The notes below the pieces were generated by a model. That model saw nothing but the letters and a program-made list of their open reading frames with translations, had not been told where the DNA came from and made no database searches. Shown here piece after piece: positions 30,761 through 50,706 of a stretch of 64,000 bases of DNA (its first letter is position 1; every line of letters begins with the position of its first letter). The stretch is taken from contig CASIAW010000007.1 of assembly GCA_949372875.1 (NCBI GenBank), positions 24,736 to 88,735 on the forward strand. Direction: 5' to 3'. The position numbers and the translations under genes were made by a program. The DNA comes from Candidatus Poseidoniaceae archaeon (GTDB lineage Archaea; Thermoplasmatota; Poseidoniia; Poseidoniales; Poseidoniaceae).

Positions 30761-30806
30761 GCTTGTCCAATAGGTGGTGTGCCTATGAACACCGCGCCTT
30801 CTCGGC

Positions 30807-30825
30807 TGACACCCGTAGGGTGTCA
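30807..30825. promoter_or_regulatory. 19-bp perfect palindrome TGACACCCGTAGGGTGTCA between the BNR gene stop and the TSP3-repeat gene start
   Basis: It is the same motif as at 25292-25310. It lies 10 nt after the BNR gene stop codon and about 50-65 nt upstream of ATG 30760. Confidence 0.5.
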
Positions 30826-30834
30826 TTGAAATGT

Positions 30835-32568: not shown

Positions 32569-32600
32569 GATGAGTTGTAGCAGCCGGGGTGCTTTGGAGG

Positions 32601-33893: not shown

Positions 33894-33998
33894 GTATGCT
33901 GCAGAGGGCCCGGTGGTTTCAATGTCACCGATAACAATCTCAAAAATATCGACTTTTGAACCCAATGCCTTCAAGGAGGTGAGTAAAGTGGGCGTAAC

Positions 33999-34775
33999 AT
34001 GGGCGATAAACTCCCTGTAACGGTCACGGTAATTCTTCCGACTCGAAATGAAGAAGAGGCGCTCGGACCTACGATAGATGCAATCCCGCGTGGATGGTGT
34101 AAAGACCTTGAAATTATGATTGTCGACGGTAATTCTACCGACCGCACTCGTGAAATTGCGCTTGAAAAGAAGATTCGAGTCCACCTTGAAAGTCGAAAAG
34201 GATACGGGCGGGCCTACAGAACAGGGTTTGATGTTGCTAAAAATGATATTATTGTCACCATGGATGCTGATTGCACTTATCCTGCAGAATTGGTTCCCAC
34301 CTTGGTAAAGCGTCTGCTTGATGATGATCTTGATTTCATCACCTGTGACCGCCTCTCACTTGCTGAAGATGGGTCGATGTCCGGAATCCACGGATTTGGG
34401 AACTGGGCGCTCTCTTTCACCGCTCGTTTGTTGTTTGGATATGGGATAAAAGATTCTCAATCAGGCATGTGGGTATTCCGAAAGTCTATTTTCAACAACG
34501 ATGCTATGCGCCCAACGAACGATGGGATGCCTCTCTCCGAAGAAATGAAAATCCTTGCTCGCCGGGTACTCGGTAAAGACAAGGCGGTCGAAATCTCAGT
34601 CCCATATCGCCCACGTGTAGGCGAAGCAGAAATCCATACTTGGGGCGACGGTTGGAAAAATTTCAAGTTCCTGTTTGCCCGTCGAATAGGCCTTCATCGA
34701 ACTGTTTCACCTTGGGGTGGTCGTGAATCAAACCCAGATTCATTGAACAAAGATTTGCCTGAGCAAAAGAAGTGA
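33999..34775 (+). CDS. Glycosyltransferase family 2 (dolichyl-phosphate sugar synthase-like)
   Basis: Motifs VTVILPTRNEEEAL and the DXD motif VTMDADCTYP are present. An AGGAGG-like sequence lies about 20 nt upstream. Confidence 0.85.
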   Translation: MGDKLPVTVTVILPTRNEEEALGPTIDAIPRGWCKDLEIMIVDGNSTDRTREIALEKKIRVHLESRKGYGRAYRTGFDVAKNDIIVTMDADCTYPAELVPTLVKRLLDDDLDFITCDRLSLAEDGSMSGIHGFGNWALSFTARLLFGYGIKDSQSGMWVFRKSIFNNDAMRPTNDGMPLSEEMKILARRVLGKDKAVEISVPYRPRVGEAEIHTWGDGWKNFKFLFARRIGLHRTVSPWGGRESNPDSLNKDLPEQKK

Positions 34776-35579
34776 TTACTCGACCACAATATCTTCAAGA
34801 CCTTCTGCTGGTTCTGGCCATTTCATGTTGAATTGGTCCATTGTTTCCACGATGAGAGATGAAATGAGTTCATTTCGGTATTTCTTATTGTTTGCTGGAA
34901 TGACATACCACGGGGCTGAATCTGTTGATGTGCGCTGAAGCATGGTTTCGAAAGCATCCTGGTAGTCATCCCAGTAAGCTCGTTCCTTGAGATCACTCAT
35001 CTCGAACTTCCAATTCTTTTCAGGTGTGTTCAGTCGGTCTTCTAGTCGGCGCTTTTGTTCATCTTTCGTAATGTGAAGAAAAATTTTGATAATTGTGGTA
35101 CCTTCATCAACCAACATTTGCTCAAAGTTACGAATGTGAGCATAGCGTTTCTCAATCTGTTCTTCAGAGACATACCCGTGTACTTTGACAACGAGAATAT
35201 CTTCATAGTGGCTTCGATTGAATACAGCGATTTCCCCATTTGCAGGTACGTGAGGGTGGACTCGCCACAGGTAGTCATGGGCCAGTTCAATGTTCGTAGG
35301 GCGCTTGAAAGGTTGAACATTGAAACCTTGAGGGTTTGTCCTTCCAAAGACAGCTCGTAGAGTACCGTCTTTACCACCCGTATCAATGGCTTGTAAAACC
35401 ACCAAAAGGCGTTGCTTCTGTCCAGCCCACATCAGTTCTTGTAAAGTCCGAATACGCTTCGTGAGGGCTTTCACCATCTTTTTTGAAACATCTTTATCAA
35501 AATCTTCAGGGGCATCGGTAGCAGCGTCTGCAAGAGAAAACTTGTCTCCTTGGGTTACCCGAAACGGCGAAGTGTCCAT
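34776..35579 (-). CDS. Polyphosphate kinase 2 (PPK2) family phosphotransferase
   Basis: The Walker A-like motif IDTGGKDGT, the lid region and the 267-aa length are typical of single-domain PPK2. Confidence 0.85.
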   Translation of the reverse strand: MDTSPFRVTQGDKFSLADAATDAPEDFDKDVSKKMVKALTKRIRTLQELMWAGQKQRLLVVLQAIDTGGKDGTLRAVFGRTNPQGFNVQPFKRPTNIELAHDYLWRVHPHVPANGEIAVFNRSHYEDILVVKVHGYVSEEQIEKRYAHIRNFEQMLVDEGTTIIKIFLHITKDEQKRRLEDRLNTPEKNWKFEMSDLKERAYWDDYQDAFETMLQRTSTDSAPWYVIPANNKKYRNELISSLIVETMDQFNMKWPEPAEGLEDIVVE

Positions 35580-35622: not shown

Positions 35623-35958
35623 TCATACGTTGTCCCAGTCAAGGTCAATACCAGCCACAGGCTGAGTGTCAGCCGCTGAGTCTTCAAGAACTGGCTTTGC
35701 TGAATCAAGTATTTCTTCTTCTGCAAGAACCTCTTCTGCACCTTCAACTGCACCACCTTCAAGTTCGTCTCGCTTTTTGTCATCGTTCGAAGAAGGTTTG
35801 AAACCGCCGAATGAATCCCAAGTGTCAATCATTGCAAGTTCAGCCTTCTTTTGACGACGTAATGCAATAACGGCAATAACGACAAGAATACCGACGAAAC
35901 CTGAAGTGGCTGCAACGAACATGGCAACTCTGCTGTCGGATTCCGCCTGCTTCAACAT
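35623..35958 (-). other. Detached C-terminal TM anchor plus acidic cytoplasmic tail of the upstream 1,554-aa adhesin, lying in a different reading frame. This implies a frameshift near 35940-35990.
   Basis: The segment encodes ...AESDSRVAMFVAATSGFVGILVVIAVIALRRQKKAE plus an acidic tail. This is the same TM-RR-acidic architecture seen at the C-termini of the other giant surface proteins. The big ORF instead ends in the nonsensical Cys/Arg-rich tail CHVRCSHFRFRRYSCRYCRYC. Confidence 0.55.
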
Positions 35959-38900
35959 AGAGTGTGATACTGAGAATATCGATCATCGGGTCAGCGCCTG
36001 TCCCGTCGGTTGCAATGACTTTCAAATTCGGACGACCTGCAGCATCAGGGTTCATCTCAACGCTGCCTTCCCAGTAGCCATCACCGTCTTCATCTGTGAG
36101 ATTAAACGCCCAGTTCTGAACGTTAAAAACAACCGTTGCTCGAACACTTTGAGTCGTCCCATCAGGGTCACTCATCATCACTCGAACAGAAAAAGTGTTT
36201 TTCTGTTGTGCAAGAAGTGTATCTGGCATAACGGTGAGATTGGAAAGTTTTGGAAGACTCGATTGAACTGTAATGTTGGTATGAACTTCGTCACTTGCTC
36301 CACGGCTGTCTTCGACATAGAGTGAGAGGTGATGCTGACCCGGAGGGAGTTGAATCGAATCAGTACTCATGGTTGAGACGATTTCATAGTCTCCAGTAAC
36401 CAACCACCGGCGCCATTCACGTGTTTCCATATCACCATCAGCATCGGAAGACTGCTCTTCTAAGACCACAAATTCACCAGGTGCTACCGAGAAGAGATTT
36501 GACGGTTGAAGTAAGAGTGCAACGGGGTCTGATTGTCCAATTGTAAGACTCACGAAGGAGATTTGTTCATCTCCGGTGTCATCTGTAAGAGTGATTTTGA
36601 TGGTGTGCTCTCCAGCAGGAAGAGGTGAAGAGTGAACTTGAGAGGTCGAAACATCACTCAACAATGGCTCAGTGAGCAAATCACTTCGAATGGTCATTGT
36701 AAACGAATCGCCGTCATAATCCACCGATTGGCGAGCGTCCCATTGAATCGGGTAACTGGAAGAATAGGCATCGCCGTCGGCAGGGGAATCGAGAGTTAAT
36801 TGCGGCGCCGAAGTCAGAACTTCAACGGTTCGTGAAACGTTGACTGGCTGATGTATGCCATCATCGAGACTGAGCGTTATCGTGTGCGTTCCAGCACTCA
36901 AACGCCCCTCGAAAATGAGCCAGTCTTCACCCTCTGGAGTAAGGCGTCCGTCCAAATCGCTGTTCCAAACCACAACCAAATATTCCGAGCCGCTGAAAGG
37001 TTCTGAATCAGCACAATGCCAGATTCCATCCATTGGGAAGGTAGAGCATGCAGAATCGTAATCACCCGAAGAATTAGCAGAGAACCATATCAGTTCCGAG
37101 GATACGTACGTTTGTGTGGAAAGTGGAGTTTCAATATTTGACTGTGGAAGCGAATTCTCAACGTCCACTAGCAGCGACGCAACCTTTGTGTCGTTGATAT
37201 GTTCTGGTCGGTTATCGACTACCCTCATTTCTATAGAATGAACGCCTCTGGAAAGGTGTCCAGTCCACGTTTTGCCGGCCTCGGTATTATTCCAGGAGAG
37301 TTGACCGTCAAGGCTTGACCAAAATTCAACCTCAAGAATATCCCCCTCAGGGTCGATAGTTGCCGTTCCATCGAGTGTGACTTCATCTTCACTAGCATTC
37401 CCAAGACGAGTTAATGTGAACACGGGGTCTGGAACTTCATTATACAGTTCTACTGGAATTGTGTACGTGGATGGAGGGTTAATGCCATCAGAGGCGTAAA
37501 TCACTACATCAAAAGTAGAAGGAACTGTTTCAGCCATTGAAAGGTTCATCCAAATTTCTGTGGGACAGTCGGTGATTGAACTTTCTGAGGTAACCGATTG
37601 ATACGAGCGGTCAATCCAACACGACAGCGTATCTCCTTCTGGATCAAAAGTTCCAGTGAGGTTGAAGAGAACATGTTGGGTTCGGGGAATCACAAGTTCT
37701 GACCATGGCGTCAATTCAGGAGTAACCTCGAAGACAATTGTAGGCGCTTGATTGACAAGTTCGATTGTTCGGCTTTCAGAAACACAGTGTCCGTAATCGT
37801 CACATATTTCCAAAGAGATGATATGAATTCCATCTGAGAGAGTGCAATTCCCTGCATGGTTCCCATTTACAGTGAATGGATACCCTCTCGTCACATTGTA
37901 TTGATTTTCAAACCCTTGACCTTGCCCAGTGCAAGATGCCAAAATATCGCCATCGAGGCTACTTGTCCATGCGAAAGTAAGTTCATCGTCATCGAGATCC
38001 CAAGAATCTGAGGCATTGAATTCGACAGAGCCTTGCGATGAGAACACCGAAGAATCAGAGGGAGAAGTCCACATGAGGAAAGGTGGTTGATTGTCGAGAG
38101 GGAGAACGCAATTGACAAATCGGTCTTGATCAAGCGTTACAGTCGTAGAATTGGATACACTGTCGTATCCACAGGAAACGGTCACTGTTGTGAAACTCGA
38201 AGCGCCCGTATTGGTCCATCGTTGACCTATGAAGTTTGGAAGAGAGCGATAACCGAACTCATTGCTCGAGTCTTGAACCGTGCTTTCAAATTGGGAAAAA
38301 GCGGCCTCAACATTTGCCCTTGGAACACCGTTACTGTTGTTATTTATGACCCAGACATTGATGTCATAAGCAACATCTACGGTTGCACCGGATGCGATGG
38401 TTGGATACGATTGGTTCAAATCGATGTTCACAGGTTGATGTAAATGCAAATTCGAATTCGAATCGAGTTGGAGAAGGGTTGAAGTCAGCCCAGAATCTGT
38501 AAATCCGGACCAATTCACCTGACTGTTAACAAATTGTATTGTTCCTGTACAATCCGTGGCAATTGCATTCCCATTTCCGGACAGGTCAAGGTGGTTTGAA
38601 ATCTGAAGACAGCCAGTACCACTGAAAGAGCTGTTACTAAGTTCTGAAGGGTAATTGTTGTTGTTTTGGCCATCCCATTCAATTCCTGAATGGTTACCAT
38701 ACATCATCAATCCATCAATTGAAGCGGCGGCTTGGTTGATGAGTAGTGCAGGTGCTCCCGCCCCACTTCCTCGCTCGGTGTGGATTTCAAGGTCTTCGAT
38801 GTGGATGACGCCTCCTTGTTGACCGAGATTTAAGCCAGAGTTGTCTGCCGCAAGCGGTGCGAAATCTTCTCCATTTTCAGCGAGATAAATATCGCTTAAC

Positions 38901-40504
38901 CAAAGGTCTGCTGAATCACGAATGAGAATACCAGAGCCTGCAGAGCCAGTCACCTCACAATTGGAACAACCAACATCAAGTTGAGGGTGAGTTACAGTCT
39001 TTGAGCGATCGAAAAACATCCCTGCTTTTTGGTCATCCGTATTTCCATTCAATCCGTTGTTCGTCACTGTGAGGTTTTGCAGGTCAGTATCAATATTGTC
39101 GAGGAGATGAACACCAGAATGACCGTTATTCTCCATTGTTGAATCATGAATACTCACTGAGGAATAATCCAAGTATAATCCATCTTCAGAGTTATTGTGA
39201 AGATATAATCCACTTGCTTCCCATTCCGCTTTGTATGAATGTATGCCCGGTCCGACTGAGCCCGATATTTCAAGACCGTCAAACACGGGAGCTGATGTAA
39301 AAATCCACGTAATAGCAAGACCTGCTTTATGCGGACCTTGACCTGGGTCCCCCGAATCGCGAATGGTAAGGTTACGGAACGTCGTCGATGAATCGGCATA
39401 ATACAAACGCACACCTGTCGAGGTGGAGTTTTCAATCAGCGTGTTCTCAAACCAAGCTCCGGTTGAGTTGACATCGATTGCTGCATACGCAATGTTGGCC
39501 GTCTTTGCTCCAACTCCACCAGTGCCTGTTACGGTTAAGTTTGTGAAATCAGCTGTTTCATAATTGGTATAATTGGAGTGGTTTTCTTTATCGACATAAA
39601 CGCCTCGATACATGGAATTAGAGACAGTACAATCTCTGAAGACTGCACGAGTGTATCCACTGTCATCAATATGGCGAACGACGATGCCATAGTCTGAACG
39701 GTCGACAGTCAAGTTGATCAACAACGGCTGGCTATCTTCAATCCAAACGCCTGCTGAAATCTCCCAACTCGAGCCACTGATATTACTCATTACAAGATTA
39801 CGCAGAATGCCACCGGAGCCACCCCAGATGTTGATTGCTCGAGTAAGGTGGTCAGTGAAGGTGGCACCGTCGACAATTGGAGTCGAACCAGAACCAATCG
39901 ATAAGCCCAAACCGTATCTCCAATCACCTTGGAAAGGGAGAACTCGTCCCGCTTGGTTGATGACTAAATCATATATTTGCGGTGCAGAATTGCTGAACAT
40001 GTCAATGCCAACACGGTCTGGATTGAGGATGGTTAAATTATGAATCACTGGGTTTGCACCATACATTGTAATACCGTATATTGAATCTTCAATCGACAGA
40101 TTGTTGAGGACGGAACCTCGATTGTTTGAACTGCTGTTGAATTGGATACCCTCATGGTCAGAACCCGTCAATGAACTCAACGTAACGGGACACGTAACTG
40201 TACCTTCAACTGTTAAACGCCCTTCGACATAAAGTCGAGCACCTGAGCCCATTTCGACTTGTGTACACGCTGAAATAATCAATTCATCAAAGACCGAGAC
40301 CGTATATGTGGAAGTGATTGTGACCGAACCTGTCCACGTTGTCTGAGCACGAGCACTAGTGGACTCTGGTATGAGAGAAATCTCTAATTCAGTCGAAGGC
40401 TCCTCTCCGTCATAAACTGAAGAAGATAGACTCGTGAAAGGGGCTCCGAGCATCAAAAAAAGAACAATCCAAATCCCAAAAGAAGAACGATTTTGAAGGT
40501 CCAT
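35840..40504 (-). CDS. Giant (~1,554 aa) secreted adhesin-like protein with a right-handed parallel beta-helix (pectin-lyase-like/PbH1) region followed by multiple Ig/PKD-like domains. It is probably disrupted near the C-terminus.
   Basis: A signal-peptide-like N-terminus MDLQNRSSFGIWIVLFLMLGAPFTS follows ATG 40504 (alternatives 40528/40645). Periodic N..G....S repeats mark the beta-helix, and long Thr/Ser-rich beta domains follow. The C-terminal 40 aa are non-biological, indicating the frameshift. Confidence 0.8.
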   Translation of the reverse strand: MDLQNRSSFGIWIVLFLMLGAPFTSLSSSVYDGEEPSTELEISLIPESTSARAQTTWTGSVTITSTYTVSVFDELIISACTQVEMGSGARLYVEGRLTVEGTVTCPVTLSSLTGSDHEGIQFNSSSNNRGSVLNNLSIEDSIYGITMYGANPVIHNLTILNPDRVGIDMFSNSAPQIYDLVINQAGRVLPFQGDWRYGLGLSIGSGSTPIVDGATFTDHLTRAINIWGGSGGILRNLVMSNISGSSWEISAGVWIEDSQPLLINLTVDRSDYGIVVRHIDDSGYTRAVFRDCTVSNSMYRGVYVDKENHSNYTNYETADFTNLTVTGTGGVGAKTANIAYAAIDVNSTGAWFENTLIENSTSTGVRLYYADSSTTFRNLTIRDSGDPGQGPHKAGLAITWIFTSAPVFDGLEISGSVGPGIHSYKAEWEASGLYLHNNSEDGLYLDYSSVSIHDSTMENNGHSGVHLLDNIDTDLQNLTVTNNGLNGNTDDQKAGMFFDRSKTVTHPQLDVGCSNCEVTGSAGSGILIRDSADLWLSDIYLAENGEDFAPLAADNSGLNLGQQGGVIHIEDLEIHTERGSGAGAPALLINQAAASIDGLMMYGNHSGIEWDGQNNNNYPSELSNSSFSGTGCLQISNHLDLSGNGNAIATDCTGTIQFVNSQVNWSGFTDSGLTSTLLQLDSNSNLHLHQPVNIDLNQSYPTIASGATVDVAYDINVWVINNNSNGVPRANVEAAFSQFESTVQDSSNEFGYRSLPNFIGQRWTNTGASSFTTVTVSCGYDSVSNSTTVTLDQDRFVNCVLPLDNQPPFLMWTSPSDSSVFSSQGSVEFNASDSWDLDDDELTFAWTSSLDGDILASCTGQGQGFENQYNVTRGYPFTVNGNHAGNCTLSDGIHIISLEICDDYGHCVSESRTIELVNQAPTIVFEVTPELTPWSELVIPRTQHVLFNLTGTFDPEGDTLSCWIDRSYQSVTSESSITDCPTEIWMNLSMAETVPSTFDVVIYASDGINPPSTYTIPVELYNEVPDPVFTLTRLGNASEDEVTLDGTATIDPEGDILEVEFWSSLDGQLSWNNTEAGKTWTGHLSRGVHSIEMRVVDNRPEHINDTKVASLLVDVENSLPQSNIETPLSTQTYVSSELIWFSANSSGDYDSACSTFPMDGIWHCADSEPFSGSEYLVVVWNSDLDGRLTPEGEDWLIFEGRLSAGTHTITLSLDDGIHQPVNVSRTVEVLTSAPQLTLDSPADGDAYSSSYPIQWDARQSVDYDGDSFTMTIRSDLLTEPLLSDVSTSQVHSSPLPAGEHTIKITLTDDTGDEQISFVSLTIGQSDPVALLLQPSNLFSVAPGEFVVLEEQSSDADGDMETREWRRWLVTGDYEIVSTMSTDSIQLPPGQHHLSLYVEDSRGASDEVHTNITVQSSLPKLSNLTVMPDTLLAQQKNTFSVRVMMSDPDGTTQSVRATVVFNVQNWAFNLTDEDGDGYWEGSVEMNPDAAGRPNLKVIATDGTGADPMIDILSITLYVEAGGIRQQSCHVRCSHFRFRRYSCRYCRYCITSSKEG

Positions 40505-40619
40505 GTCTTCCGCTGTATGAAAGAGCATTTGAAGGGTTCTATGAAATGTGAGAAACGGTATCATTGAGCCCAAGAGTTTCCTTCGATAGCAATAAGACCG
40601 GTCCGCAATTCGGCTGTTT

Positions 40620-40853
40620 ATGCCCGAAGCGTTTGTGTTGTTCAAAACCCAACCTGCTCACGAGCGAGAAGTCTACCTTTCATTGATGGAACATTCAGCC
40701 GTTGCGGAAGTTCATGCACTTTACGGTGAATTTGATTTAGTCGTTCGTTTGTCTGTGGAAAACTCCCAAAACCTCACCAAAATGTTGATGACCGATTTTC
40801 GCCAAATCCAAGGAGTTAAAGATACTCAAACACTGATTGCAGTGGAATACTGA
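40620..40853 (+). CDS. Stand-alone Lrp/AsnC ligand-binding (RAM) domain protein, 77 aa
   Basis: The protein shows the betaalphabetabetaalphabeta RAM pattern: VLFKTQPAHEREVYLSLMEHSAVAEVHALYGEFDLVVRLSVENSQNLTKMLMTDFRQIQGVKDTQTLIAVEY. It has no HTH. Confidence 0.7.
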   Translation: MPEAFVLFKTQPAHEREVYLSLMEHSAVAEVHALYGEFDLVVRLSVENSQNLTKMLMTDFRQIQGVKDTQTLIAVEY

Positions 40854-40862
40854 GGTGAATGA

Positions 40863-41096
40863 ATGGCTATTGGATTTGTATTGATTACGACGCAACCCGG
40901 CTCTGAAAGTTTGGTTAGACGCGCATTAGATGGAATTGAATACGTTACTGACCGTTGGATGTTATTTGGAGAATACGACCTCATTGCCCGAGTCCAAGCG
41001 GATGATGAGTTTGCACTTACGCGATGTATTGTCGAAGAGATCCGTGTGCTTGACGGCATCAGTGATACCAAAACTCTGATTGGCGCTGAACTTTAA
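40863..41096 (+). CDS. Second stand-alone Lrp/AsnC RAM-domain protein, 77 aa, in tandem with the first
   Basis: The sequence is FVLITTQPGSESLVRRALDGIEYVTDRWMLFGEYDLIARVQADDEFALTRCIVEEIRVLDGISDTKTLIGAEL. It lies 9 nt after the first gene's stop, preceded by an SD-like ggtgaatgaATG. Confidence 0.7.
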   Translation: MAIGFVLITTQPGSESLVRRALDGIEYVTDRWMLFGEYDLIARVQADDEFALTRCIVEEIRVLDGISDTKTLIGAEL

Positions 41097-43313
41097 TCAC
41101 AAGAAAGAATGCAGTCGTGCTTCCAGTATGTTCGCTGCTCGCGGACAACCTGCTGCTCTGTGTTTAGAAATGGCTTCTTTCAATGCAATTTGTCGCATCG
41201 ATGGCTCAAGTTGAGAGGAGCATGTCCACCAACGAGCGTGAAGTCGTTGGTGAGAGATATGAATCGCAGATTCATCTGGTTGAGATACGAAGAGAAATTC
41301 TGCTCTAGCTAGCTCAATGTCATGCTCCAACAGTGCTTCCACGAGCGTTAACCGCAGTGACTCACGATGGATAGGGCTGATCTGCTGTTCAATGGCTTTA
41401 CGAGTGATACCCACTGCGGAGGAAAACTCTTTGTTGCTTTTCTTAGCCTTGGCCAAAGATGCCTTGGCTTCAAGACCCAATACCAATGCATGATCGATAC
41501 CTCCGATGGATACGAGAGTTGCGCGAAGTGTTTCTGCTTTCACATAGTTTTCTTCATGTAAGGCAAGTGCATGTTGGACCATGGTCAGTGCAACCAATGT
41601 TACAGCACGGAGTGAGGGTTCATTCGGCAGAACAATCTGACTGAGGTAGTGTTTGATTTCCCCAATAGTTTGCTTGGAGAGTGTTGTTTCGACTCGGTCA
41701 TCTAATCGTCGGGAAGATGCCGATAAAGCCAACTGGTTTTTCTGTTGCTGTGAACCGATTTCCAACCCCTTTGTAATGGCGATTTCAGCATCCTCTATAC
41801 GCCCTTCGAGATAGGCTAAATTCATTTCAATTTCGTTGAAAGAGCCTTCTTCATGAATCGACTCCAGATGGTGACGAGCATGACTCGATTCACATCGGTC
41901 AAGTGCTACTTTTGCAGCGAGATAATGGAGATGAGAAGGCTCGTGAGAACGCTCAATGGCTTGCTCAAGAAGAACTGAAAGAGCATTGCTATGTTCCGAA
42001 GGAAGAGAGCCATAAGCGGTAGTACAATGAGCCTCTAAATCCTGAGTATCTGAACAAATGCGATGATAGAGTAAGATAATTTGGTCTTCCGGAGTTTGAG
42101 CACAGGACTCCCAATGCGTAACTGCCTCACGATGGAGTTTTAATTTCTCTTGTTCGGTCATTGTTGAGCGGCGCACGTTCCGTATCAAGTGATGCAATTC
42201 CATTTTCTCCGTACCTGAAGTCCAACGTAAAAATGCTGATTCATCAAGAATGCCAACGATTTCATTGTCCTGTGCCTTACTGGCTTCAATAGGCATTGGA
42301 AGTATGACCAGGTGGTCCAATTCAGACCGAGTCGTTTCATCAAGTGTCGACAAAACAACCTCTTCGACATACGACTGAACCTCCGAGTTTGTTTCAGGTA
42401 AAGCCGTTTCATGCTGATAGAGAAGGAGAGCTAATGGATGGCCCCCGAGTCGCTCAGCAATGTGTTCTCGCTCTTCTTTAGATTGGGAGGTTCCTAGTAA
42501 TTTAATCGCATCAGGGGTATCAAGTGGAGGAATCGAAATTCGTTCAACTTGTTCAAAGGAAACAAGTGGTTCTCTTCCAATAAAAATCATCTTTGGGCCA
42601 TTGAGGCGTTCTATCTGATGACAGAGGGCATGGAATTGAGGTAAGTGGCGCTGAGAGATGAGATGAACATCATCGAAGATGAAAATTTCGTCTCTGCATT
42701 GCATTACGATATACTCGGCGAGTGCATCGATATCGGAGGGCAGGGGAGATGCGAAAGCCATTGATGAGCACAATGCTTCAAAGTCCGAAAACGCATCGGC
42801 TGTAGCCCAGCGAAGATCTAAACCCATTGAGAGAAGTTCATGTCCGACTGCAATTCCGACGGTTGTTTTTCCAATGCCGGGTAAACCACTGAGAAGAATA
42901 GTGTGCCGTTCTTGGACCATGGCAAGGGCGTTTTGTATGACATCTGAACGTCCATGGATTTCACCACTTTGAGGATAATCTCCGTAAGACATCCCAACAG
43001 AACTGCTCTTTCGTGGTTTGGAATTGTCCTCGCCGAATGAATCGAAAAGAAGACGACCTTCATCTGTGAGATGGTAGACATTTCTTCTACGAGAGCCACC
43101 TCCAATCACATGAGCCATTCGCTTGAAAATTAGGCCTTGATCTTCAAGGATTGTCAAAGGTCCATTCAATGCTGAGCGGACCACGCTAAGTGACTCACTT
43201 AATCCAGGGAGTGAAATTTCACGCGTCACATCCCATGCTTTTTCTAAATTTTTAGAATATTGCCCTAGACAGCGCAGGAGGCGTTCCTGCGGCAAAGACA
43301 GTCGAGGTGACAT
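41097..43313 (-). CDS. wHTH-STAND(NB-ARC-like P-loop NTPase)-TPR/helical regulator (738 aa)
   Basis: The N-terminal winged helix (LRCLGQYSKN...RNVYHLTDEGRLL) is followed by Walker A (LLSGLPGIGKTTVGIAV) and Walker B (IFIFDDVHLIS). The long C-terminus is alpha-helical and TPR-like. This AfsR/MalT-like signal-transducing ATPase architecture is established knowledge, not a search result. Confidence 0.75.
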   Translation of the reverse strand: MSPRLSLPQERLLRCLGQYSKNLEKAWDVTREISLPGLSESLSVVRSALNGPLTILEDQGLIFKRMAHVIGGGSRRRNVYHLTDEGRLLFDSFGEDNSKPRKSSSVGMSYGDYPQSGEIHGRSDVIQNALAMVQERHTILLSGLPGIGKTTVGIAVGHELLSMGLDLRWATADAFSDFEALCSSMAFASPLPSDIDALAEYIVMQCRDEIFIFDDVHLISQRHLPQFHALCHQIERLNGPKMIFIGREPLVSFEQVERISIPPLDTPDAIKLLGTSQSKEEREHIAERLGGHPLALLLYQHETALPETNSEVQSYVEEVVLSTLDETTRSELDHLVILPMPIEASKAQDNEIVGILDESAFLRWTSGTEKMELHHLIRNVRRSTMTEQEKLKLHREAVTHWESCAQTPEDQIILLYHRICSDTQDLEAHCTTAYGSLPSEHSNALSVLLEQAIERSHEPSHLHYLAAKVALDRCESSHARHHLESIHEEGSFNEIEMNLAYLEGRIEDAEIAITKGLEIGSQQQKNQLALSASSRRLDDRVETTLSKQTIGEIKHYLSQIVLPNEPSLRAVTLVALTMVQHALALHEENYVKAETLRATLVSIGGIDHALVLGLEAKASLAKAKKSNKEFSSAVGITRKAIEQQISPIHRESLRLTLVEALLEHDIELARAEFLFVSQPDESAIHISHQRLHARWWTCSSQLEPSMRQIALKEAISKHRAAGCPRAANILEARLHSFL

Positions 43314-43479
43314 GTGTTAAGCCACTGCCCCGTTTCTTTCTAAGGGAATCCCCTTCATGCATACAGTAATTTGAAAATTTAAATTGTTCAAGTCACTGTA
43401 AAATTAAAAAAAAAGTAAATTGATTTTTTTAAAAATATAATTCCTTGTTAGGTATTTAAGAACAATCCAAGTTACTTAA
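43314..43479. promoter_or_regulatory. AT-rich (~25-30% GC) divergent promoter region with A/T tracts and TATA-like boxes (tttaaa, ttttaaaaatata)
   Basis: The region is strikingly AT-rich compared with the ~48% GC surroundings. It separates the divergent STAND-regulator and TPR-protein genes. Confidence 0.45.
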
Positions 43480-45261
43480 ATGCGAAAGCCTCTAGATTCA
43501 ATCATGAACCTTGCACCAACTGATTATGACTACGGCGTCCCGGCGAACTATTTCTTTGCTTCAAATATTACATGTGCGAACGACGATGCTCGTAAGATGT
43601 ATGTCCAAGCCTTTGGTCACATGCTCAACTATAACCACGAAGAAGCAATTGCCTGTTTCAGTAAATGTACTGAACTCGACCCAACCTGCGCTATGGCTTA
43701 CTGGGGAATCGCATACTGCGTCTCTTCAAACTACAATTGGAGCCCAGGACTTGGCTCTGGACACGATTCGATTCAACAAGCTGTTTCTCTCAAAGCAGGC
43801 TGCACCGAACTTGAGCAAGACCTCATCGATGCATTGGCACAACGCCATTCTGCAGAAGCACGTGATGCAGCAGATCCGTCGGTCCTCAACATGGGCAACG
43901 ATCCTGAACTCAACGTTGCATTCGCAAAAGCAATGGAGCCTCTTTATCGAAAGTACAGTGGAAACTTGGATGTTGCCGCCATTTATGTCGAGGCTCTCAT
44001 GAATTTGAAAGCATGGCAACTTTGGGATAAGAATGTCAGTACCGGAGAAATTACTCCCGCTGACGACAACACATTGCTGTTGGTCAAAGTAATGGAAGAT
44101 GCATTTGCAAACATCGAAGGTGCAAAGGAACACGTTGCAATGTGCCACCTATACTGCCACGCTCTTGAATTATCTCCGTTCCCAGAACGCGCTCTACCAG
44201 CAGCAGACGTGCTTCGCACCGTCATGCCTGGCATGGGTCACCTCGTGCACATGCCCTCTCACATCGATGCATGGGTTGGACAATGGAAAGAAGCAATTGA
44301 ATGTAACATTGCTGCGGTTGAAGCCGATGACAAATACGTCGAACTCACAGGCAATGAATCCCAGTTTTACAAGTTCTATCGAATGCACAACCACCATTTC
44401 GTGGTTTGGTGTGCTATGTTTGAAGGACAATACGAAACTGCTCTCAAGTATGCTCGAAAGGCAGTCGATACACTTCCTGCTGGAGACGAAAACTCAGGCG
44501 TTCAGTTCATGCTTGCTGGTATCATCCCTATGGGTGCAATCTTCCTTGAATCCTATGTTACCATGCCATGGCACGTCATGATTCGTTTCGGAAAGTGGGA
44601 CGAAATCATTGCTGAACCAATGTATTCTGACAAGGATGTATTCCCTGCAACCATCGCAACACAACACTACGCTCGTGGTGTGGCTTATGCATCCAAGGGA
44701 ATGGTTGCTGAGGCTGAAGCAGAACAAGTTCTGTTCAATGAAGCGATTCAAAACCCTGCACTTGCTGGCCGTGTATTACACAACAATTTGATGTATCAAG
44801 ACCCAAGTGATGGGCCATGTATTCTTTTGGTCAACGCTGCTGTTCTTGCTGGTGAAATTGAATACCGAAAGCAATTCCAAGCAAAGGCTCGTGGTGAAGC
44901 ATCTGACTTCACTGCTGCTTTTGATCACCTACGCCGTGGTGTCGATCTTTCACTCAACCTTGCTTACAACGAACCTTGGGGTCAAATGCAACCTGTGCGC
45001 CACATTCTCGGTGCTCTTCTCCACGAACAAGGTGAAATCGAAGAAGCAGAAGCGGTCTACCGTGCTGACATCAAACTTTGGAAAGACAACATGTGGGGTC
45101 TCCTCGGTCTCAAACTTTGTCTCGAAGCTCGTGGCGATGCTCCAGAGGAACTCGCTGCAGTCACTGCATTGTTCAACGAACGTAGTTCTCGTGCTGACAT
45201 CGTTCCAGCCAAGACCTGCTTCTGTGCCCAAGACAGTCTCGAAAAGAGTTGCTGCGATTAA
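43480..45261 (+). CDS. TPR-like all-helical protein (593 aa), function unknown
   Basis: The long clean ORF has repeated helical hairpins with TPR-like signatures (AMAYWGIAY, ALKYARKAVD). The C-terminus is cysteine-rich (KTCFCAQDSLEKSCCD). Confidence 0.7.
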   Translation: MRKPLDSIMNLAPTDYDYGVPANYFFASNITCANDDARKMYVQAFGHMLNYNHEEAIACFSKCTELDPTCAMAYWGIAYCVSSNYNWSPGLGSGHDSIQQAVSLKAGCTELEQDLIDALAQRHSAEARDAADPSVLNMGNDPELNVAFAKAMEPLYRKYSGNLDVAAIYVEALMNLKAWQLWDKNVSTGEITPADDNTLLLVKVMEDAFANIEGAKEHVAMCHLYCHALELSPFPERALPAADVLRTVMPGMGHLVHMPSHIDAWVGQWKEAIECNIAAVEADDKYVELTGNESQFYKFYRMHNHHFVVWCAMFEGQYETALKYARKAVDTLPAGDENSGVQFMLAGIIPMGAIFLESYVTMPWHVMIRFGKWDEIIAEPMYSDKDVFPATIATQHYARGVAYASKGMVAEAEAEQVLFNEAIQNPALAGRVLHNNLMYQDPSDGPCILLVNAAVLAGEIEYRKQFQAKARGEASDFTAAFDHLRRGVDLSLNLAYNEPWGQMQPVRHILGALLHEQGEIEEAEAVYRADIKLWKDNMWGLLGLKLCLEARGDAPEELAAVTALFNERSSRADIVPAKTCFCAQDSLEKSCCD

Positions 45262-45337
45262 GCAGAATCCAACATCCAATCGGGACCCTTTTGTTCATAA
45301 AGTGCCGATTCAACCGACCTCATAAGATGGTGTCGCA

Positions 45338-45802
45338 ATGTTGACAGTCGCAGATGTAGAGGAAGCCCAGCAAGCATGGGGAGAAGGGATTGTAGAGATT
45401 GCTGCAGCGCATAATGCTGGAGCGGACTATGTCCAAAGGGCACGTACTCATGTAGAATCGTTGTATAGTTACGACATTGGACCCGTATTGTTCAAACCAA
45501 CCTTGGCTGTAAAAAATCAGTTTCGCCCGACCTTTGAAGGAGCATTATCCTACTTTGTTGGGGGAAACAGCGCATTTTCAGAAGACAAGGGATTCGCAAT
45601 CAAGAGTTGGACAAAGGTGCGGTTTGAGAATGAGGATGTCATCATCAGCGGAACAACTGCAATAACCATGGGAAATTATTTTTTCACACCACCAAGCGGT
45701 GAAGAGGTTAAGGTTGAATTTACCTTTGGATACATCGTTGATTCAAACAGAAAGTTGCGAATTAACCTGCATCATTCTTCAATGCCGGCAGACATTGACT
45801 GA
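45338..45802 (+). CDS. NTF2-like superfamily protein resembling the CaMKII association-domain/SnoaL-like family (DUF4440-like)
   Basis: The pattern is EEAQQAWGEGI...LYSYD...F.G...F.....DG.....H.S.. The 154-aa length and C-terminal HHSS signature fit. Confidence 0.55.
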   Translation: MLTVADVEEAQQAWGEGIVEIAAAHNAGADYVQRARTHVESLYSYDIGPVLFKPTLAVKNQFRPTFEGALSYFVGGNSAFSEDKGFAIKSWTKVRFENEDVIISGTTAITMGNYFFTPPSGEEVKVEFTFGYIVDSNRKLRINLHHSSMPADID

Positions 45803-46379: not shown

Positions 46380-46988
46380 TCAAACCTGTGGAAAGAGAAG
46401 AACTTCATCGCCTTCTGTCCATTGTTTGTATTTCTTCATACAGATTTTGAACGGCTCACTTTCAAGATTCTCATGAAGCCAAGTCAACACGTTGCCCCAC
46501 TCTTGTGCATCGAACCATTCACGGTTATGATTTGCAAATTGCCGGACAAATGGAAACAATGCATCGCTCAATGCCTCACTGATCGGAGGTTGAGAAGCAA
46601 GACGGGTATCCAAATCCATGAGATAGGATGATGCAGCAGAGCGTTGTTCAAGTTCGTCAACTCCTTCGTATCGATTGGGATACTTGTAGCGGTCAAGATG
46701 ATACTTGAACTCATCATCATTTCTTGTAATCCAATGGCTCTCTTCTTGTGAAAGTGTCCAGTCCAAGACGTGTTGCATAATCTCAAGACTTTCCTCAATC
46801 AGCGTTCCATCTTTGAGGAGTAAAACTGGAACTGTTCCCTTCGGTGAGATTTCCATCATGTGAGCCGGTCGGTGTCGTAAAACGACCTCTCTCAATTCAA
46901 CTTGAAAATTTTCACGAACAATCGACATTCTGGCTCGCATCGCATATGGACATCGCCGAAACGAGTAAAGAAGGGGAGTTTCAGCCAT
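46380..46988 (-). CDS. Glutaredoxin 2 / GST-fold thiol transferase-like protein (CPYA active-site motif)
   Basis: LLYSFRRCPYAMRARM...VPVLLLKDGTLIEESLEIMQHV aligns to the Grx2/GST N-terminal thioredoxin fold. A helical C-terminal domain follows. Confidence 0.7.
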   Translation of the reverse strand: MAETPLLYSFRRCPYAMRARMSIVRENFQVELREVVLRHRPAHMMEISPKGTVPVLLLKDGTLIEESLEIMQHVLDWTLSQEESHWITRNDDEFKYHLDRYKYPNRYEGVDELEQRSAASSYLMDLDTRLASQPPISEALSDALFPFVRQFANHNREWFDAQEWGNVLTWLHENLESEPFKICMKKYKQWTEGDEVLLFPQV

Positions 46989-47002
46989 GTTCTGGCTTCA
47001 CC

Positions 47003-48067
47003 TCACTCTGGTGGAATTGGAGGCGCATAGCCGCCATTGACTGCTTCTTGGACAAGTGCCATATCAGAGTCAACCATCATTTGAACCAGTTCTTCAAACG
47101 AAGTTCCTGGGACCCATCCAAGTTCTTTCTCTGCAAGAGCAGGATCGCCGATTAGCAAATCAACTTCAGCTGGTCGGAAGAATTTCGGATTTGTACGCAC
47201 ACGGATGTTTCCATTTTGGTCTGTAGCAATGGTGTCTACACCCTCCCCTGACCAAGTAAGATTCATTCCAACATGTGAAAAACCGAGCGTAATCATGTCC
47301 CGAACACTGTGTGTTCGACCGGTAGCAACAACGTAGTCACCAGGTTCATCTTGCTGAAGCATTCTCCATTGCATCTCGACATAATCGCCGGCAAATCCCC
47401 AATCTCGCTTTGCATCGACGTTGCCAATCCAAAGGCATTCATCAAATCCATGGGCGATACGTGCTGCAGTCATCGTAACCTTACGAGTGACGAATTCCAG
47501 TCCACGGCGTGGGCTTTCGTGATTGAAGAGAATACCTGTGCAAGCAAACATATCGTAAGACTCTCGGTAATTACGGGTGATTTCGAATGCGAACACTTTG
47601 GCACATCCATATGGGGAGCGCGGGTGGAACGGAGTCAGTTCTGTTTGAGGAACGTCTCTCACTTTTCCGTATTGCTCAGAAGAACCTGCTTGATAGAAAC
47701 GGCACGTTGGTGCGTGCTTTCGAATTGCTTCAAGGCAACGAAGCGCCCCTAAACCAGTGATGTCTGCAGTCATCATTGGCGAGCGCCATGATTCTGGAAC
47801 AAATGACATTGCACCGAGGTTGTAAAATTCATCTGGTTGGGCGAGAGTCACTGCATTATCAATTGAGTTCTGGTCAGCAAGGTCACCGTTAACCAGTCTA
47901 AAATTATCATTGGTCATCAAGTGATTAATGAGGCTTCGACCAGAGGTTGGTTGAGACACGCGGCGAACCAAGCCATAGACGATGTAGCCCTTTTCCAACA
48001 ACAGTTCTGCAAGGTATGAACCGTCTTGGCCAGTGATTCCGGTTACCATTGCTGTCTTTCCGCTCAT
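47003..48067 (-). CDS. gmd: GDP-mannose 4,6-dehydratase
   Basis: MVTGITGQDGSYLAELLLEKGYIVYGLVRR carries the SDR Rossmann motif. The YxxxK catalytic region and 354-aa length are typical of Gmd. Confidence 0.9.
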   Translation of the reverse strand: MSGKTAMVTGITGQDGSYLAELLLEKGYIVYGLVRRVSQPTSGRSLINHLMTNDNFRLVNGDLADQNSIDNAVTLAQPDEFYNLGAMSFVPESWRSPMMTADITGLGALRCLEAIRKHAPTCRFYQAGSSEQYGKVRDVPQTELTPFHPRSPYGCAKVFAFEITRNYRESYDMFACTGILFNHESPRRGLEFVTRKVTMTAARIAHGFDECLWIGNVDAKRDWGFAGDYVEMQWRMLQQDEPGDYVVATGRTHSVRDMITLGFSHVGMNLTWSGEGVDTIATDQNGNIRVRTNPKFFRPAEVDLLIGDPALAEKELGWVPGTSFEELVQMMVDSDMALVQEAVNGGYAPPIPPE

Positions 48068-48120
48068 GGCTTACCGTAGACTCCTCCCTTTTTCAATCGG
48101 TCGCGTGTTCGTATGCGTAA

Positions 48121-49470
48121 ATGGCAACTGGAATCCACCTGCTGAGGGAGGATTTGAAGGGGAGTCGCCGGCTGTACGGTCCAATGGCTGAATTGAAAGA
48201 CGGAGTTGGGAGCGGTCTACGCGTTCTCATTGTTCGTGGTTCATTCGCTTCACTGGGAGGTGCTGAACGTGAACTACTGCAGCTCATTCGGGCAACTTCT
48301 CAACGTTGGGATGTGAGTTTAGCGAGTCTTGATTTGACCAAAGATGCTCAAGATTTGCTCAATGATGCAAATGTGCGGCTCCTTTTACCTACAACAGCAA
48401 TGAAGTGGCCAGCAGGCGCTGTTGCTGAAATCATGGCAAAGGCAAGCACATCTGCACAAAAAATGTGGCGGAGCATCGACATTCCTTGGGATGAGTTTGA
48501 TGCAGTTCACATGTCGGTTTGCCGTGGCACCCTCGAACTGCTACCGCTCATCCCTGCTCATCTTCCAGTTCATTACCACTGCCTCGAACCGCCAAGGTGG
48601 TTGTATGAAGATGTGCTTCACCGTCATATTGATGGTACTCCAAAACGCCCACTATGGTTCACAAAAGCACTTTTCACTCGTCAAAGAATTCGAGACCAAA
48701 CTTTTGTTAAAAAACTCCTCAAACGCCCGAAGTCTTCGATTTCAGGAAATTCAATGTGGATACAAAAGCGACTGAATCAAGTCTACGGCATAGCGTGCGA
48801 TAGTGAAAAAGAAAACGGCAAACCACCAAAGCGAGATGCTGGGGGGCGACCTGTTGAAGCAAGCCATGTCATGCATGTTATCGACTGGAAGTTATGGCCT
48901 GAGAAAGCAACCGCAAAGGAATTGAAATCACTCAAAGAAATGGGGACCATACCCGAAGAATACGTAGTAACTGTTGGACGAGTATCTCATGTGAAAGGAA
49001 CCTGGGACACATTACAATCTCTGAAGGATACCGGACTGGCTTTGGTTCAAGTTGGTGGTGGAGATGACGCAGACAAGAGTAAGCTCATCGAAGAGGGAAA
49101 GAGAATTGGAGTTGAAGTAAACTGTATGCCTCGACTTTCGCAGACGCAACTTTGTGCTTTGATCAGAGGTTCTCTGGCGATGGTAAGTCACGCCCATGAT
49201 GAGCCATTTGGACTCACGCCCATTGAAGCGATGGCAATCGGCATTCCTGCGCTCATGGTCGATGAAGGAGGATTTACCTGCACCATGTCACCTGTTGACT
49301 CTGGACGCCTCTTACCTCGAAACGACTTAGGGGCTTGGAAAGCCTCGTATCTTGATTCAAAAGACCCCGTCTTACGCAAGGCTTGGGCCGATGTCGGACG
49401 GCCTTATGTGGAAACGCATTTCACTCTTGAAGTTCAAATCGCTGCCCTTGAACGGATGATGTCTATTTGA
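48121..49470 (+). CDS. Glycosyltransferase family 4 (group 1) with an ~200-aa N-terminal extension
   Basis: The C-terminal motif is HDEPFGLTPIEAMAIGIPALMVDEGG. The start may be an internal Met. Confidence 0.8.
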   Translation: MATGIHLLREDLKGSRRLYGPMAELKDGVGSGLRVLIVRGSFASLGGAERELLQLIRATSQRWDVSLASLDLTKDAQDLLNDANVRLLLPTTAMKWPAGAVAEIMAKASTSAQKMWRSIDIPWDEFDAVHMSVCRGTLELLPLIPAHLPVHYHCLEPPRWLYEDVLHRHIDGTPKRPLWFTKALFTRQRIRDQTFVKKLLKRPKSSISGNSMWIQKRLNQVYGIACDSEKENGKPPKRDAGGRPVEASHVMHVIDWKLWPEKATAKELKSLKEMGTIPEEYVVTVGRVSHVKGTWDTLQSLKDTGLALVQVGGGDDADKSKLIEEGKRIGVEVNCMPRLSQTQLCALIRGSLAMVSHAHDEPFGLTPIEAMAIGIPALMVDEGGFTCTMSPVDSGRLLPRNDLGAWKASYLDSKDPVLRKAWADVGRPYVETHFTLEVQIAALERMMSI

Positions 49471-49501
49471 GATTTATTAAGTGTTGAATACTTCCTTTCA
49501 C

Positions 49502-50158
49502 ATGGAAGAAGAATCTATGCCAAAAAATGTACTTATCGTCGGCACCGGCGGTATTGGAACAACCCTCGTTGAGTTACTTGTACCTGCCTTGGAACGCGTT
49601 CAATTAAAGGCCAAAATCTCGCTTATGGATGGAGATGTTGTGGAAACCTCAAACCTCGGACATCAGCGCTTCTCTCAAGCGAATGTCGGCATGGAGAAAG
49701 TCTCTGCTCTTTCGAGTAAATATGCTGGTGAAACAGAATATGTGGAACTGGTCCCACTGACTGAAAACTTGAGAAGTGCTGAACAACTTGAAGGCTATGA
49801 TTTGGTCGTTGTCTGCGTCGATAGGCCGGAGCCTCGCCGATTGGTTCACGCTCTTGAGATTCCTTGGGTCGACCTGAGGTGTTCTGGAGATGGATGGATG
49901 GTCTTTTCATCTCAGTCAGATTCTGTTCTGGTCGAGCAAATGACTCCCGACCATGAACCGATGAGTTGTCAAGTCCAAGGTGCATTGGATGCAGGGAATC
50001 TCGAATTTGGATTTTCGATTGCAGGAACTTTTGGAGCCCAGTGGCTTCTTCAACACCTTCGTGAAAGAAAATCACCCATGCAATCTATGGGAAGTCTCAC
50101 GTATGGTCAATTCGAGTTTCCGCGCTTGAAGAGCAATACAGTGGAGGTGAAGGCATGA
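49502..50158 (+). CDS. Minimal ThiF/MoeB/E1-like adenylyltransferase (~219 aa)
   Basis: The Rossmann motif VLIVGTGGIGT is followed by the E1 signature ISLMDGDVVETSNLGHQRF (compare DxDxVExSNLNRQ), then DLVVVCVDRPEPRRL and PWVDLRCSGDGWMVF. The ORF track starts at GTG 49481; the ATG at 49502 or 49517 is more likely. The stop overlaps the next start (ATGA). Confidence 0.7.
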   Translation: MEEESMPKNVLIVGTGGIGTTLVELLVPALERVQLKAKISLMDGDVVETSNLGHQRFSQANVGMEKVSALSSKYAGETEYVELVPLTENLRSAEQLEGYDLVVVCVDRPEPRRLVHALEIPWVDLRCSGDGWMVFSSQSDSVLVEQMTPDHEPMSCQVQGALDAGNLEFGFSIAGTFGAQWLLQHLRERKSPMQSMGSLTYGQFEFPRLKSNTVEVKA

Positions 50159-50706
50159 TATTCATCCCTGCTCTCGAACAGTTAGATGTGACCCAAGAGG
50201 TTTGGGACCACGTCACAGAGATGGCAAAACAAAGAAACATCGAGGATGAAGTGTTACTTGACATCCAACATCGTGCATCGAAACAAGGTCGTTGGGATGT
50301 TGTCTATGCAATTTCTTATCTTGCTGGACTTGAAACATCCGTGCTCATTGATGCGGAAAATGTCATTTCAATAGATTGGGGGACTTCTGGACAAGTCCAA
50401 CTCTCACCTCCTGTTGGATGTATTGCCCCATTCAAACTCTGGGTTCATACCCATCCCGGATTTTCTGCATACTGGTCAGGAACGGATACTCGCAGCCTGT
50501 CAATCGGGCTTGGAATTGTTGAGAAGGCAATGGTTCTTGGATCACCTGGAATAAAGTGCACGCATAATGCGACCATGTTGCCCCTCTCCTCAAGCTCGCT
50601 ACGTATTTCGGAAACAGGGCCGTTGAGCGAATGGTCTGATGAAGAAGTGATTCAATGGGAAGACTGGTATGCTCAACATTTCAATAGCGATGAGGTGACA
50701 CAATGA
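50155..50706 (+). CDS. JAB/MPN (JAMM) family metalloprotease (183 aa)
   Basis: The JAMM motif WVHTHPGFSAYWSGTD (HxHx7SxxD) sits with an upstream acidic residue context. The gene is translationally coupled to the flanking genes by ATGA overlaps at both ends. Confidence 0.7.
   Translation: MIFIPALEQLDVTQEVWDHVTEMAKQRNIEDEVLLDIQHRASKQGRWDVVYAISYLAGLETSVLIDAENVISIDWGTSGQVQLSPPVGCIAPFKLWVHTHPGFSAYWSGTDTRSLSIGLGIVEKAMVLGSPGIKCTHNATMLPLSSSSLRISETGPLSEWSDEEVIQWEDWYAQHFNSDEVTQ

Follow-up and report, generated by a model that had tools for sequence, protein, structure and literature searches.

Tail-to-tail conservation of a winged-helix STAND NTPase and paired stand-alone RAM proteins beside a giant surface protein gene in Poseidoniales: a possible control unit for the cell surface

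We analysed a 64 kb stretch of DNA (hereafter, the window) from an archaeon of the order Poseidoniales (Marine Group II, MGII), with a focus on four adjacent genes, here called the cassette. Two short tandem genes, RAM1 and RAM2, encode proteins of 77 amino acids (aa) each; their 3' end meets the 3' end of a gene for a 738-aa protein that combines a predicted winged helix-turn-helix (wHTH), a STAND NTPase and a helical sensor, and on the other side they are divergent from the gene of a giant surface protein. Marine metagenome contigs in ENA encode proteins that are 100% identical to the 738-aa protein, and those of its relatives that have a name bear the label Candidatus Poseidoniaceae or Poseidonia. 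The four genes and the domains of the STAND protein lie as follows.

40620..40853, plus strand: RAM1, which opens a predicted bicistronic operon and encodes a 77-aa stand-alone RAM (Lrp/AsnC ligand-binding) protein; PF01037, 44.9 bits
40863..41096, plus strand: RAM2, a paralogous 77-aa stand-alone RAM protein; PF01037, 40.4 bits
41097..43313, minus strand: the 738-aa wHTH-STAND-helical sensor protein, a predicted transcription factor of the PH0952 type, from profile searches, an AlphaFold2 (AF2) model and Foldseek
43029..43313, minus strand: its N-terminal winged-helix effector domain, residues 1-95; in the AF2 model, a beta hairpin (62-82) comes after the helices
42159..42953, minus strand: its NOD core, comprising the nucleotide-binding and helical domains (NBD-HD, residues 121-300) and the winged-helix domain (WHD, 301-385), from motifs and the alignment with PH0952
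41100..42158, minus strand: its arm and all-helical TPR-like sensor, residues 386-738; 17 consecutive AF2 helices, aligned by Foldseek to the PH0952 sensor
35623..40504, minus strand: the giant type-I membrane surface protein, with signal peptide, right-handed beta-helix, PKD/Ig-like domains, transmembrane (TM) helix and a cytoplasmic tail of ~70 aa; beta-helix and PKD matches in Pfam

This arrangement is conserved across the order. One genome per species was scanned, which yielded a relative of the STAND protein in 267 species; the best 80 loci of these were fetched, and gene order was counted from a phmmer census of their open reading frames (ORFs), 79 loci being informative and one truncated. 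The order STAND, RAM2, RAM1, giant gene was found in 75 of the 79 informative species loci, and the most distant full-length STAND proteins (L089 and L090, ~25-31% identical to the window protein) still carry the RAM pair, so that the synteny of RAM pair and STAND gene, on which the initial annotation had staked its proposal, is upheld. An orthologue of the giant protein is adjacent in every locus with enough sequence. In the window, the stop codon of RAM2 (41094-41096) touches that of the STAND gene (41097-41099, minus strand) with zero bases between them, which bears out the abutment of 3' ends noticed initially; across the loci, the gap from stop to stop is 0 to +2 nucleotides (nt), or there is a 4-nt overlap, in 73 of 75 cases.

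The description of RAM1 and RAM2 as tandem 77-aa proteins devoid of a helix-turn-helix (HTH), already given in the initial annotation, proved accurate: both ORFs match PF01037 above its gathering cut-off of 25 bits, and because the match (residues 6-75 of 77) covers essentially the whole protein, there is no space for an HTH. Both proteins align end-to-end with the stand-alone RAM structures 2e1a, 2cvi and 2zbc (75-83 aa). The closest PDB structures to RAM1 are these stand-alone RAM proteins (2zbc, 2cvi, 2e1a), the closest to RAM2 is DM1 (2e1a), and 2djw is also among the best solved relatives of the pair, which range from 75 to 92 aa. With a single RAM domain and a length of 77 aa in 63-70 of the 75 orthologues, RAM1 and RAM2 are stand-alone RAM proteins (demi-FFRP, or SARD). 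Known members of this class bind amino acids at dimer-dimer interfaces, switch between dimer and octamer, and are able to hetero-oligomerise. RAM1 orthologues are 61-100% identical among themselves; mean identity is ~74-79% within the RAM1 and within the RAM2 orthologues but only ~37% between RAM1 and RAM2, and we therefore consider them an old pair of paralogues, separately conserved. The G-E-[FY]-D and T-x-T signatures, associated with binding of the ligand backbone, are kept in both proteins and align with those of DM1, a stand-alone RAM protein that binds amino acids. A gap of 9 nt separates the two genes in the window and one of 8-10 nt in most loci, and a Shine-Dalgarno-like GGTGA (40854-40858) precedes the RAM2 ATG. 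Neither the 64-kb window nor the sequence up to 10 kb from any of the 80 orthologous loci contained another RAM-domain ORF or a full-length Lrp/AsnC ORF. An alternative identity of RAM1 as a NapD-like chaperone was rejected (a sub-threshold match with E=0.029 and 14.9 bits, the cut-off being 28; the signal peptide of the giant protein has no twin-arginine motif).

The 738-aa protein carries a complete set of STAND motifs: Walker A (GLPGIGKTT, residues 143-151), Walker B (IFIFDD, 210-215), GxP (GGHPLA, 290-295) and the WHD motif (HHLIRNVRR, 374-382). The Pfam model nSTAND3 scores just under its cut-off (25.3 vs 27.2 bits), and nSTAND6 is also sub-threshold. A family profile (A1), built from 24 members and compared with PDB, matched PH0952 of Pyrococcus horikoshii (6mfv) with E=4e-12 over residues 111-387, from the P-loop through GxP into the WHD. 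The AF2 model (predicted local distance difference test score, pLDDT, 86.7) contains a wHTH at ~1-95, an alpha/beta NBD, a helical domain, a WHD and 17 helices that extend to the C-terminus, and its top Foldseek match is again 6mfv (E=1e-11, 665 aligned columns), with weaker matches to SAMD9, plant NLRs, NLRC4, Cdc6 and Avs4 behind it. Judged from sequence and the predicted model, the protein is a STAND NTPase, in which a NOD (NBD, HD with GxP, and WHD) is followed by a C-terminal repeat sensor, and the wHTH-bearing regulatory STAND PH0952 is its top match by sequence and by fold. Thus, the NTPase at the centre of the architecture initially proposed is supported by profile, model and Foldseek alike and the winged helix by the AF2 model, its sequence matches being weak; the sensor can be called TPR-like with regard to its fold, as no Pfam TPR model matched residues 386-738.

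That the top match is PH0952, rather than a housekeeping ATPase, ORC/Cdc6 or Avs, settles a point on which the initial annotation had made its proposal conditional. An ORC/Cdc6 identity is contradicted by the reversed domain order, by the 350-aa sensor and by the weakness of the fold match to Cdc6 1fnn (E=3e-5 vs 1e-11 for PH0952). Membership in the MalT family was rejected given that there is no LuxR/GerE match, the effector is N-terminal and the C-terminus is the sensor; membership in AfsR/SARP was rejected for want of a Trans_reg_C or BTAD match in the 738-aa protein. There are 441 homologues of 725-770 aa, all from Poseidoniales, and the gene is single-copy and constant in length. An exhaustive profile search delineates a compact full-length family of ~45 clusters at 50% identity; below a gap in score are generic STAND proteins that share the NOD only, sometimes with a wHTH. 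Within this family, the winged helix is the best-conserved domain, with 82-91% identity within clades and, in the most distant members, 28-49% identity vs 16-29% in most other domains, which fits a conserved nucleic-acid target. Its wing motif, HVIGGGSRRRxVYH, includes positions that are invariant in the family alignment (HV-GGG-RRR-V-H).

The giant protein shows a Beta_helix match of 78 bits together with a K319L-like PKD match in Pfam, and its orthologues are ~1580-1630 aa long when counted from the methionine of the signal peptide. The most likely start in the window is 40504, the methionine before the signal peptide, rather than 40645 or 40564, and the divergent spacer between RAM1 and the giant gene therefore measures 115 nt. 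The beta-helix region reaches 80-88% column identity among orthologues. All the orthologues compared (L009-L047 and L088) close with a TM helix, followed by a basic stop-transfer sequence (RRRxR/RRQKK) and an acidic cytoplasmic tail of ~70 aa, with the tail motifs (I/M)(D/E)SWD(A/S)FG, LEGGxx(D/E)GAxEV and, at the C-terminus, DLDWD(N/D)V, the last of which is replaced by IDELLE or DDDELDI in distant clades. An unusual conservation of the tail was rejected, with a column identity of 0.28-0.52 vs 0.6-0.88 in the ectodomain. Relative to a contig from the same population (L003), the giant gene of the window has a 1-nt insertion that shifts the frame near 35948 (minus strand) and splits the gene into a 1555-aa ORF and another frame that holds the intact TM helix and tail (35623-35901). 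In four contigs of the same strain, the frame breaks at differing positions, and we therefore regard indels of the long-read assembly as likely, rather than a pseudogene. Another giant ORF, of 2185 aa, lies ~10 kb from the cassette (18868-25425, minus strand). According to Pfam labels on identical contigs, the cassette sits in a region of the surface-glycosylation type (26866-35579 and 46380-50706), with genes for GT2, GT4, GT1, a GDP-mannose 4,6-dehydratase-like epimerase, PPK2 and a ThiF-like protein.

Candidate promoters were recognised upstream of each transcription unit of the cassette, with elements that resemble the B recognition element (BRE) and the TATA box.

40582..40598, plus strand: motif A, the presumed promoter of the RAM operon, BRE/TATA-like, reads TTCGATAGCAATAAGAC; 22-38 nt 5' of the RAM1 ATG
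40526..40553, minus strand: promoter of the giant gene, with TCTCACA, GAACC (BRE-like) and CTTCAAA (TATA-like); ~24-30 nt 5' of the ATG at 40504
43336..43346, minus strand: presumed promoter element of the STAND gene, CCCTTAGAAAG; 23-33 nt 5' of the ATG

The TTAT core of motif A is invariant in 69 loci, and the motif occurs once in the window. It is deleted along with the RAM genes in the loci that lack them and is therefore presumed to be the RAM promoter; its distance to the ATG implies, from sequence, an mRNA without a leader or with a short one. The elements of the giant gene promoter are conserved in the same number of loci and are kept in the RAM-less ones, and the STAND promoter has elements of the TTAGAA/TGATGAA type at a constant distance (~-30) across loci. 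The AT-rich region on the far side of the STAND gene (43314-43479, 166 nt, 27.7% GC), which the initial annotation had named as a possible target of control, is the divergent promoter region between the STAND gene and a gene for a 593-aa TPR protein (TPR593, 43480-45261); this divergent arrangement is limited to the clade of the window, and TPR593, present in that clade only, was rejected as a member of the cassette. TPR593 is followed by a gene for a 154-aa MICAH-domain protein (region 43314-45802), and both are clade-restricted and stand in place of the ancestral UvrC neighbour. More generally, a TTGAA/TTCAA element is found ~25-35 nt before many starts in the window, often after CGAA/GAAC (for example, upstream of 982, 7500-8693 on the minus strand, 16034, 47003-48067 on the minus strand, and 56451), and appears, from its position, to be the BRE/TATA-type promoter of this lineage, with leaderless or very short-leader mRNAs.

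Two comparisons, one within and one outside the family, separate the STAND protein from its RAM neighbours. At least two lineages have lost the RAM pair from this locus by a clean deletion, and in them the STAND and giant genes are co-directional and 60-115 nt apart. RAM-less lineages comprise TMED99, UBA91, AG-333-I22 and GCA_036228365.1. Four loci (L010, L011, L014 and L023) form a coherent clade near the window in which the STAND gene is directly followed by the giant gene; a lineage of 31% GC (L088) has the STAND gene, a homologue of the giant protein (36% identity), GT2 and GT4, and, on the sequence evidence, is a second, independent RAM loss. The STAND protein of the closest RAM-less clade is intact and mildly accelerated; the acceleration is not domain-specific (61.4% vs 65.8% identity to the outgroup) and hence uninformative as to relaxed selection on the sensor. 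Because the STAND protein remains intact after RAM loss, it does not depend on the RAM pair, which is therefore accessory. The outgroup consisted of five wHTH-STAND-TPR proteins in unrelated gene contexts. None of the five loci has a RAM neighbour, and at three of the five (L091, L094 and L095/L096) the neighbours are large beta-helix or secreted proteins: one STAND gene is divergent from the gene of a secreted protein (1761 aa or more), another from that of a Beta_helix/NosD protein (972 aa or more), and a third is convergent with the gene of a 1129-aa NosD/Beta_helix protein and divergent from that of a DUF7948/SBBP protein of at least 1023 aa. These neighbourhoods support, at the level of gene content, a recurrent link of the STAND protein to a large surface protein, to which the RAM pair would be a Poseidoniales-specific addition, and this STAND clade may be associated with giant surface proteins in general.

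The reading that we favour, with a probability of roughly 0.45, is that the 738-aa protein is a STAND factor similar to PH0952 and MalT that controls the neighbouring surface-protein or glycosylation genes, with a RAM1/RAM2 hetero-oligomer as an accessory, dispensable input for amino acids or other metabolites. Under this model, the arm and the helical sensor would hold the NOD closed in a resting, ADP-bound state; an inducer bound to the sensor would open the NOD and allow exchange for ATP and multimerisation, and the multimer would gather the N-terminal PadR/ArsR-like winged helices on DNA. The most likely target would be the adjacent, strongly conserved giant beta-helix/PKD gene, and the glycosyltransferase genes downstream may be controlled with it. 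RAM1 and RAM2, predicted to be co-transcribed from a leaderless bicistronic operon, would probably assemble into a hetero-oligomer with an amino acid or a related metabolite as its ligand and provide an accessory feast/famine input, most economically as partners of the STAND protein itself, by analogy with MalK, MalY and Aes, which act on MalT. This input would be dispensable because some lineages have lost the RAM pair.

Several observations weigh against this reading. The RAM losses with an intact STAND protein and the RAM-free outgroup loci speak against a strict coupling of the two, and so does the broader gene order: clustering of the flanking ORFs shows that a neighbourhood of ~20 kb is syntenic, with a ~1028-aa gene and UvrC upstream and GT2/GT4 downstream in most loci with enough sequence, and UvrC, the ~1028-aa gene and GT2/GT4 are kept about as well as the cassette. 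Given such a high baseline of synteny, adjacency alone is weak evidence of function. The sequence matches of the winged helix are weak (PadR, E=0.002 in Pfam; HpaR/MarR, 0.025; in PDB, PadR 3l7w at best, E=0.066). The shared promoter motifs for which the initial annotation had suggested a search were not found: no operator motif is common to the promoter regions of the cassette, and the window holds no further copy of motif A or of motif B (CGAACCnTTsAAg), which lies 24-30 nt from the ATG of the giant gene. Motif B was rejected as a specific operator, as TTGAA/TTCAA ~30 nt before many ATGs of the window marks it as a general promoter element, and the giant gene promoter itself resembles the general TTGAA-type promoter of the lineage; motif A was rejected as a STAND operator that serves the giant gene, being lost with the RAM genes and lacking another copy in the window. 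Nor does the spacer between RAM1 and the giant gene contain a conserved structure or a conserved inverted repeat: RNAalifold predicted 0 pairs from 69 sequences, and folding z-scores averaged -0.23 (p=0.14), which led us to reject a palindromic operator there, although clade-specific inverted repeats are visible by eye in several of these spacers. Consequently, of the proposal that the RAM pair and the STAND gene form one regulatory unit, the conserved arrangement stands, and the losses, the RAM-free outgroups, the syntenic surroundings and the lack of a shared operator count against it; the suggested control of the giant gene gains from the outgroup neighbours and loses from the missing operator; and the AT-rich region is indeed a divergent promoter, in an arrangement with the TPR gene that only the clade of the window possesses.

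Much of this could also be accommodated if the genes were independent neighbours, the main rival explanation, which we consider possible, albeit less probable than the favoured one. The RAM pair would then hetero-oligomerise with a full-length Lrp/AsnC protein encoded elsewhere, the gene order would be inherited in a compact, slowly rearranging genome, and the STAND protein would regulate otherwise or sense an unrelated signal. Hetero-octamers of the stand-alone RAM protein DM1 and the full-length FL11 are documented in vitro and are the favoured explanation for such proteins (PMC2995911); the synteny extends to the functionally unrelated UvrC, the STAND protein is retained without the RAM pair, and its outgroup relatives have no RAM neighbours. 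However, neither the window nor the 10-kb surroundings of the loci encode a full-length Lrp/AsnC candidate partner, and the stop-to-stop abutment is held in nearly all loci with the pair, although compact genomes can yield such an abutment without function. Furthermore, the clade of the window has a rearrangement breakpoint directly upstream of the STAND gene, where TPR593, the MICAH-domain gene, GST and GDP-mannose dehydratase replace UvrC, and the STAND-RAM-giant block persists over it. The survival of this breakpoint, together with the neighbours of the outgroup STAND genes, goes beyond shared descent and supports a recurrent link between the STAND gene and that of a large surface protein.

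It is improbable, in our estimate, that the giant protein acts as an adhesin or receptor and that its tail (ESWDxFG, LEGGxxDGAxEV, DLDWDNV) is the peptide ligand of the TPR-like sensor, such that the STAND protein, modulated by the RAM hetero-oligomer, couples contact or substrate to transcription. TPR domains commonly bind acidic C-terminal peptides, the adjacency of the STAND and giant genes is universal, RAM-less lineages included, the giant protein is of the type-I membrane kind with short tail motifs that are recognisable even in the distant 31%-GC relative, and outgroup STAND genes likewise adjoin those of large surface proteins; against this, the tail is less conserved than the ectodomain, and its C-terminal motif is swapped in some clades. 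A role as an Avs-like or other anti-virus NTPase in a defence or conflict locus is far less probable still. Although Avs4, NLRC4, plant NLRs and SAMD9 are among the weaker Foldseek matches and nSTAND3 and nSTAND6 among the sub-threshold Pfam matches, PADLOC returned only noise at the level of the P-loop (best E=3e-4, over 30 residues), and the effector is a predicted wHTH rather than a nuclease, protease or TIR domain. Moreover, unlike mobile and patchy defence genes, the STAND gene belongs to the core, is single-copy and vertically inherited, and keeps its place on the chromosome throughout the order (in at least 80 species); no patchy presence among strains and no association with mobile elements was seen for it.

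The favoured reading, namely that of a STAND factor with an accessory RAM input, draws on several known systems. [quoted passage not shown] The protein described here is likewise archaeal and has the predicted winged-helix effector, the NBD-HD-WHD NOD, the arm and the helical repeat sensor in the same order, but the two are only ~16% identical, the weak matches of the wHTH make it look more like PadR than ArsR, no Pfam TPR model hits the sensor, and no RAM association has been reported for PH0952. MalT of Escherichia coli, which regulates the uptake and use of a polymer, provides the working model of a STAND activator that multimerises in dependence on ATP and inducer and has a TPR-like sensor and inhibitory partners, MalK, MalY and Aes (PMC6468293, PMC10427625). 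However, the effector of MalT, a LuxR-type HTH, is C-terminal, and that of the 738-aa protein, a predicted winged helix, is N-terminal; moreover, the partners proposed here are RAM proteins, and there is no close sequence relationship. AfsR/SARP proteins of actinomycetes share the succession of N-terminal winged-helix effector, STAND NTPase and TPR, but AfsR is bacterial, with an OmpR-type wHTH plus BTAD and an NB-ARC-like NOD of another clade. RAM1 and RAM2 resemble the demi-FFRPs (DM1, DM2 and DM3 of P. horikoshii, STS042 of S. tokodaii and TTHA0845-like 2djw) in size (75-92 aa), in consisting of the RAM domain only and in the G-E-Y/F-D and T-x-T signatures; they differ in being two diverged paralogues in a fixed tandem operon at a fixed position, where it meets a STAND gene tail-to-tail and diverges from a giant gene. 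Known stand-alone RAM proteins are discussed as partners of full-length Lrp, with an unclear physiological role, and DM1-type proteins are described to shift their oligomeric state on binding of Ile or Met, hetero-octamers being possible (PMC2995911).

Taken together, each of these genes is an ordinary member of a known family, and it is the conserved cassette that is apparently undescribed: no mention of it was found in the accessible parts of the literature searched, including papers on archaeal Lrp and on MGII genomics. The conservation of these genes side by side across the order suggests, from the sequence comparisons, a nutrient-responsive control unit for the cell surface. We put forward the functional coupling of the cassette genes as a hypothesis and consider its regulatory reading plausible. 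A bolder version, which we think unlikely, is an outside-in device, in which the giant beta-helix protein would sense particles or polymers at the surface, its tail or amino-acid-loaded RAM1/RAM2 would be the ligand of the STAND sensor, and the multimerised STAND protein would switch surface and glycosylation genes; if true, this would be the first physiological role of stand-alone RAM proteins as direct modulators of a STAND switch and the first signalling pathway defined for the uncultured, globally abundant MGII archaea.

Poseidoniales exceed all other planktonic archaea of surface oceans in abundance and are uncultured, and, to our knowledge, almost nothing is known of their gene regulation. 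The cassette places a switch-type factor and two metabolite-sensor-like proteins beside the giant surface protein that is best conserved in the lineage, in a region of glycosylation genes. If the proposed link is false, it amounts to three well-conserved neighbours from known families and nothing more. If the link is true, it would provide a defined partner for stand-alone RAM proteins and a handle on the coupling between nutrient status and the cell surface in these archaea, for instance in particle attachment or polymer use.

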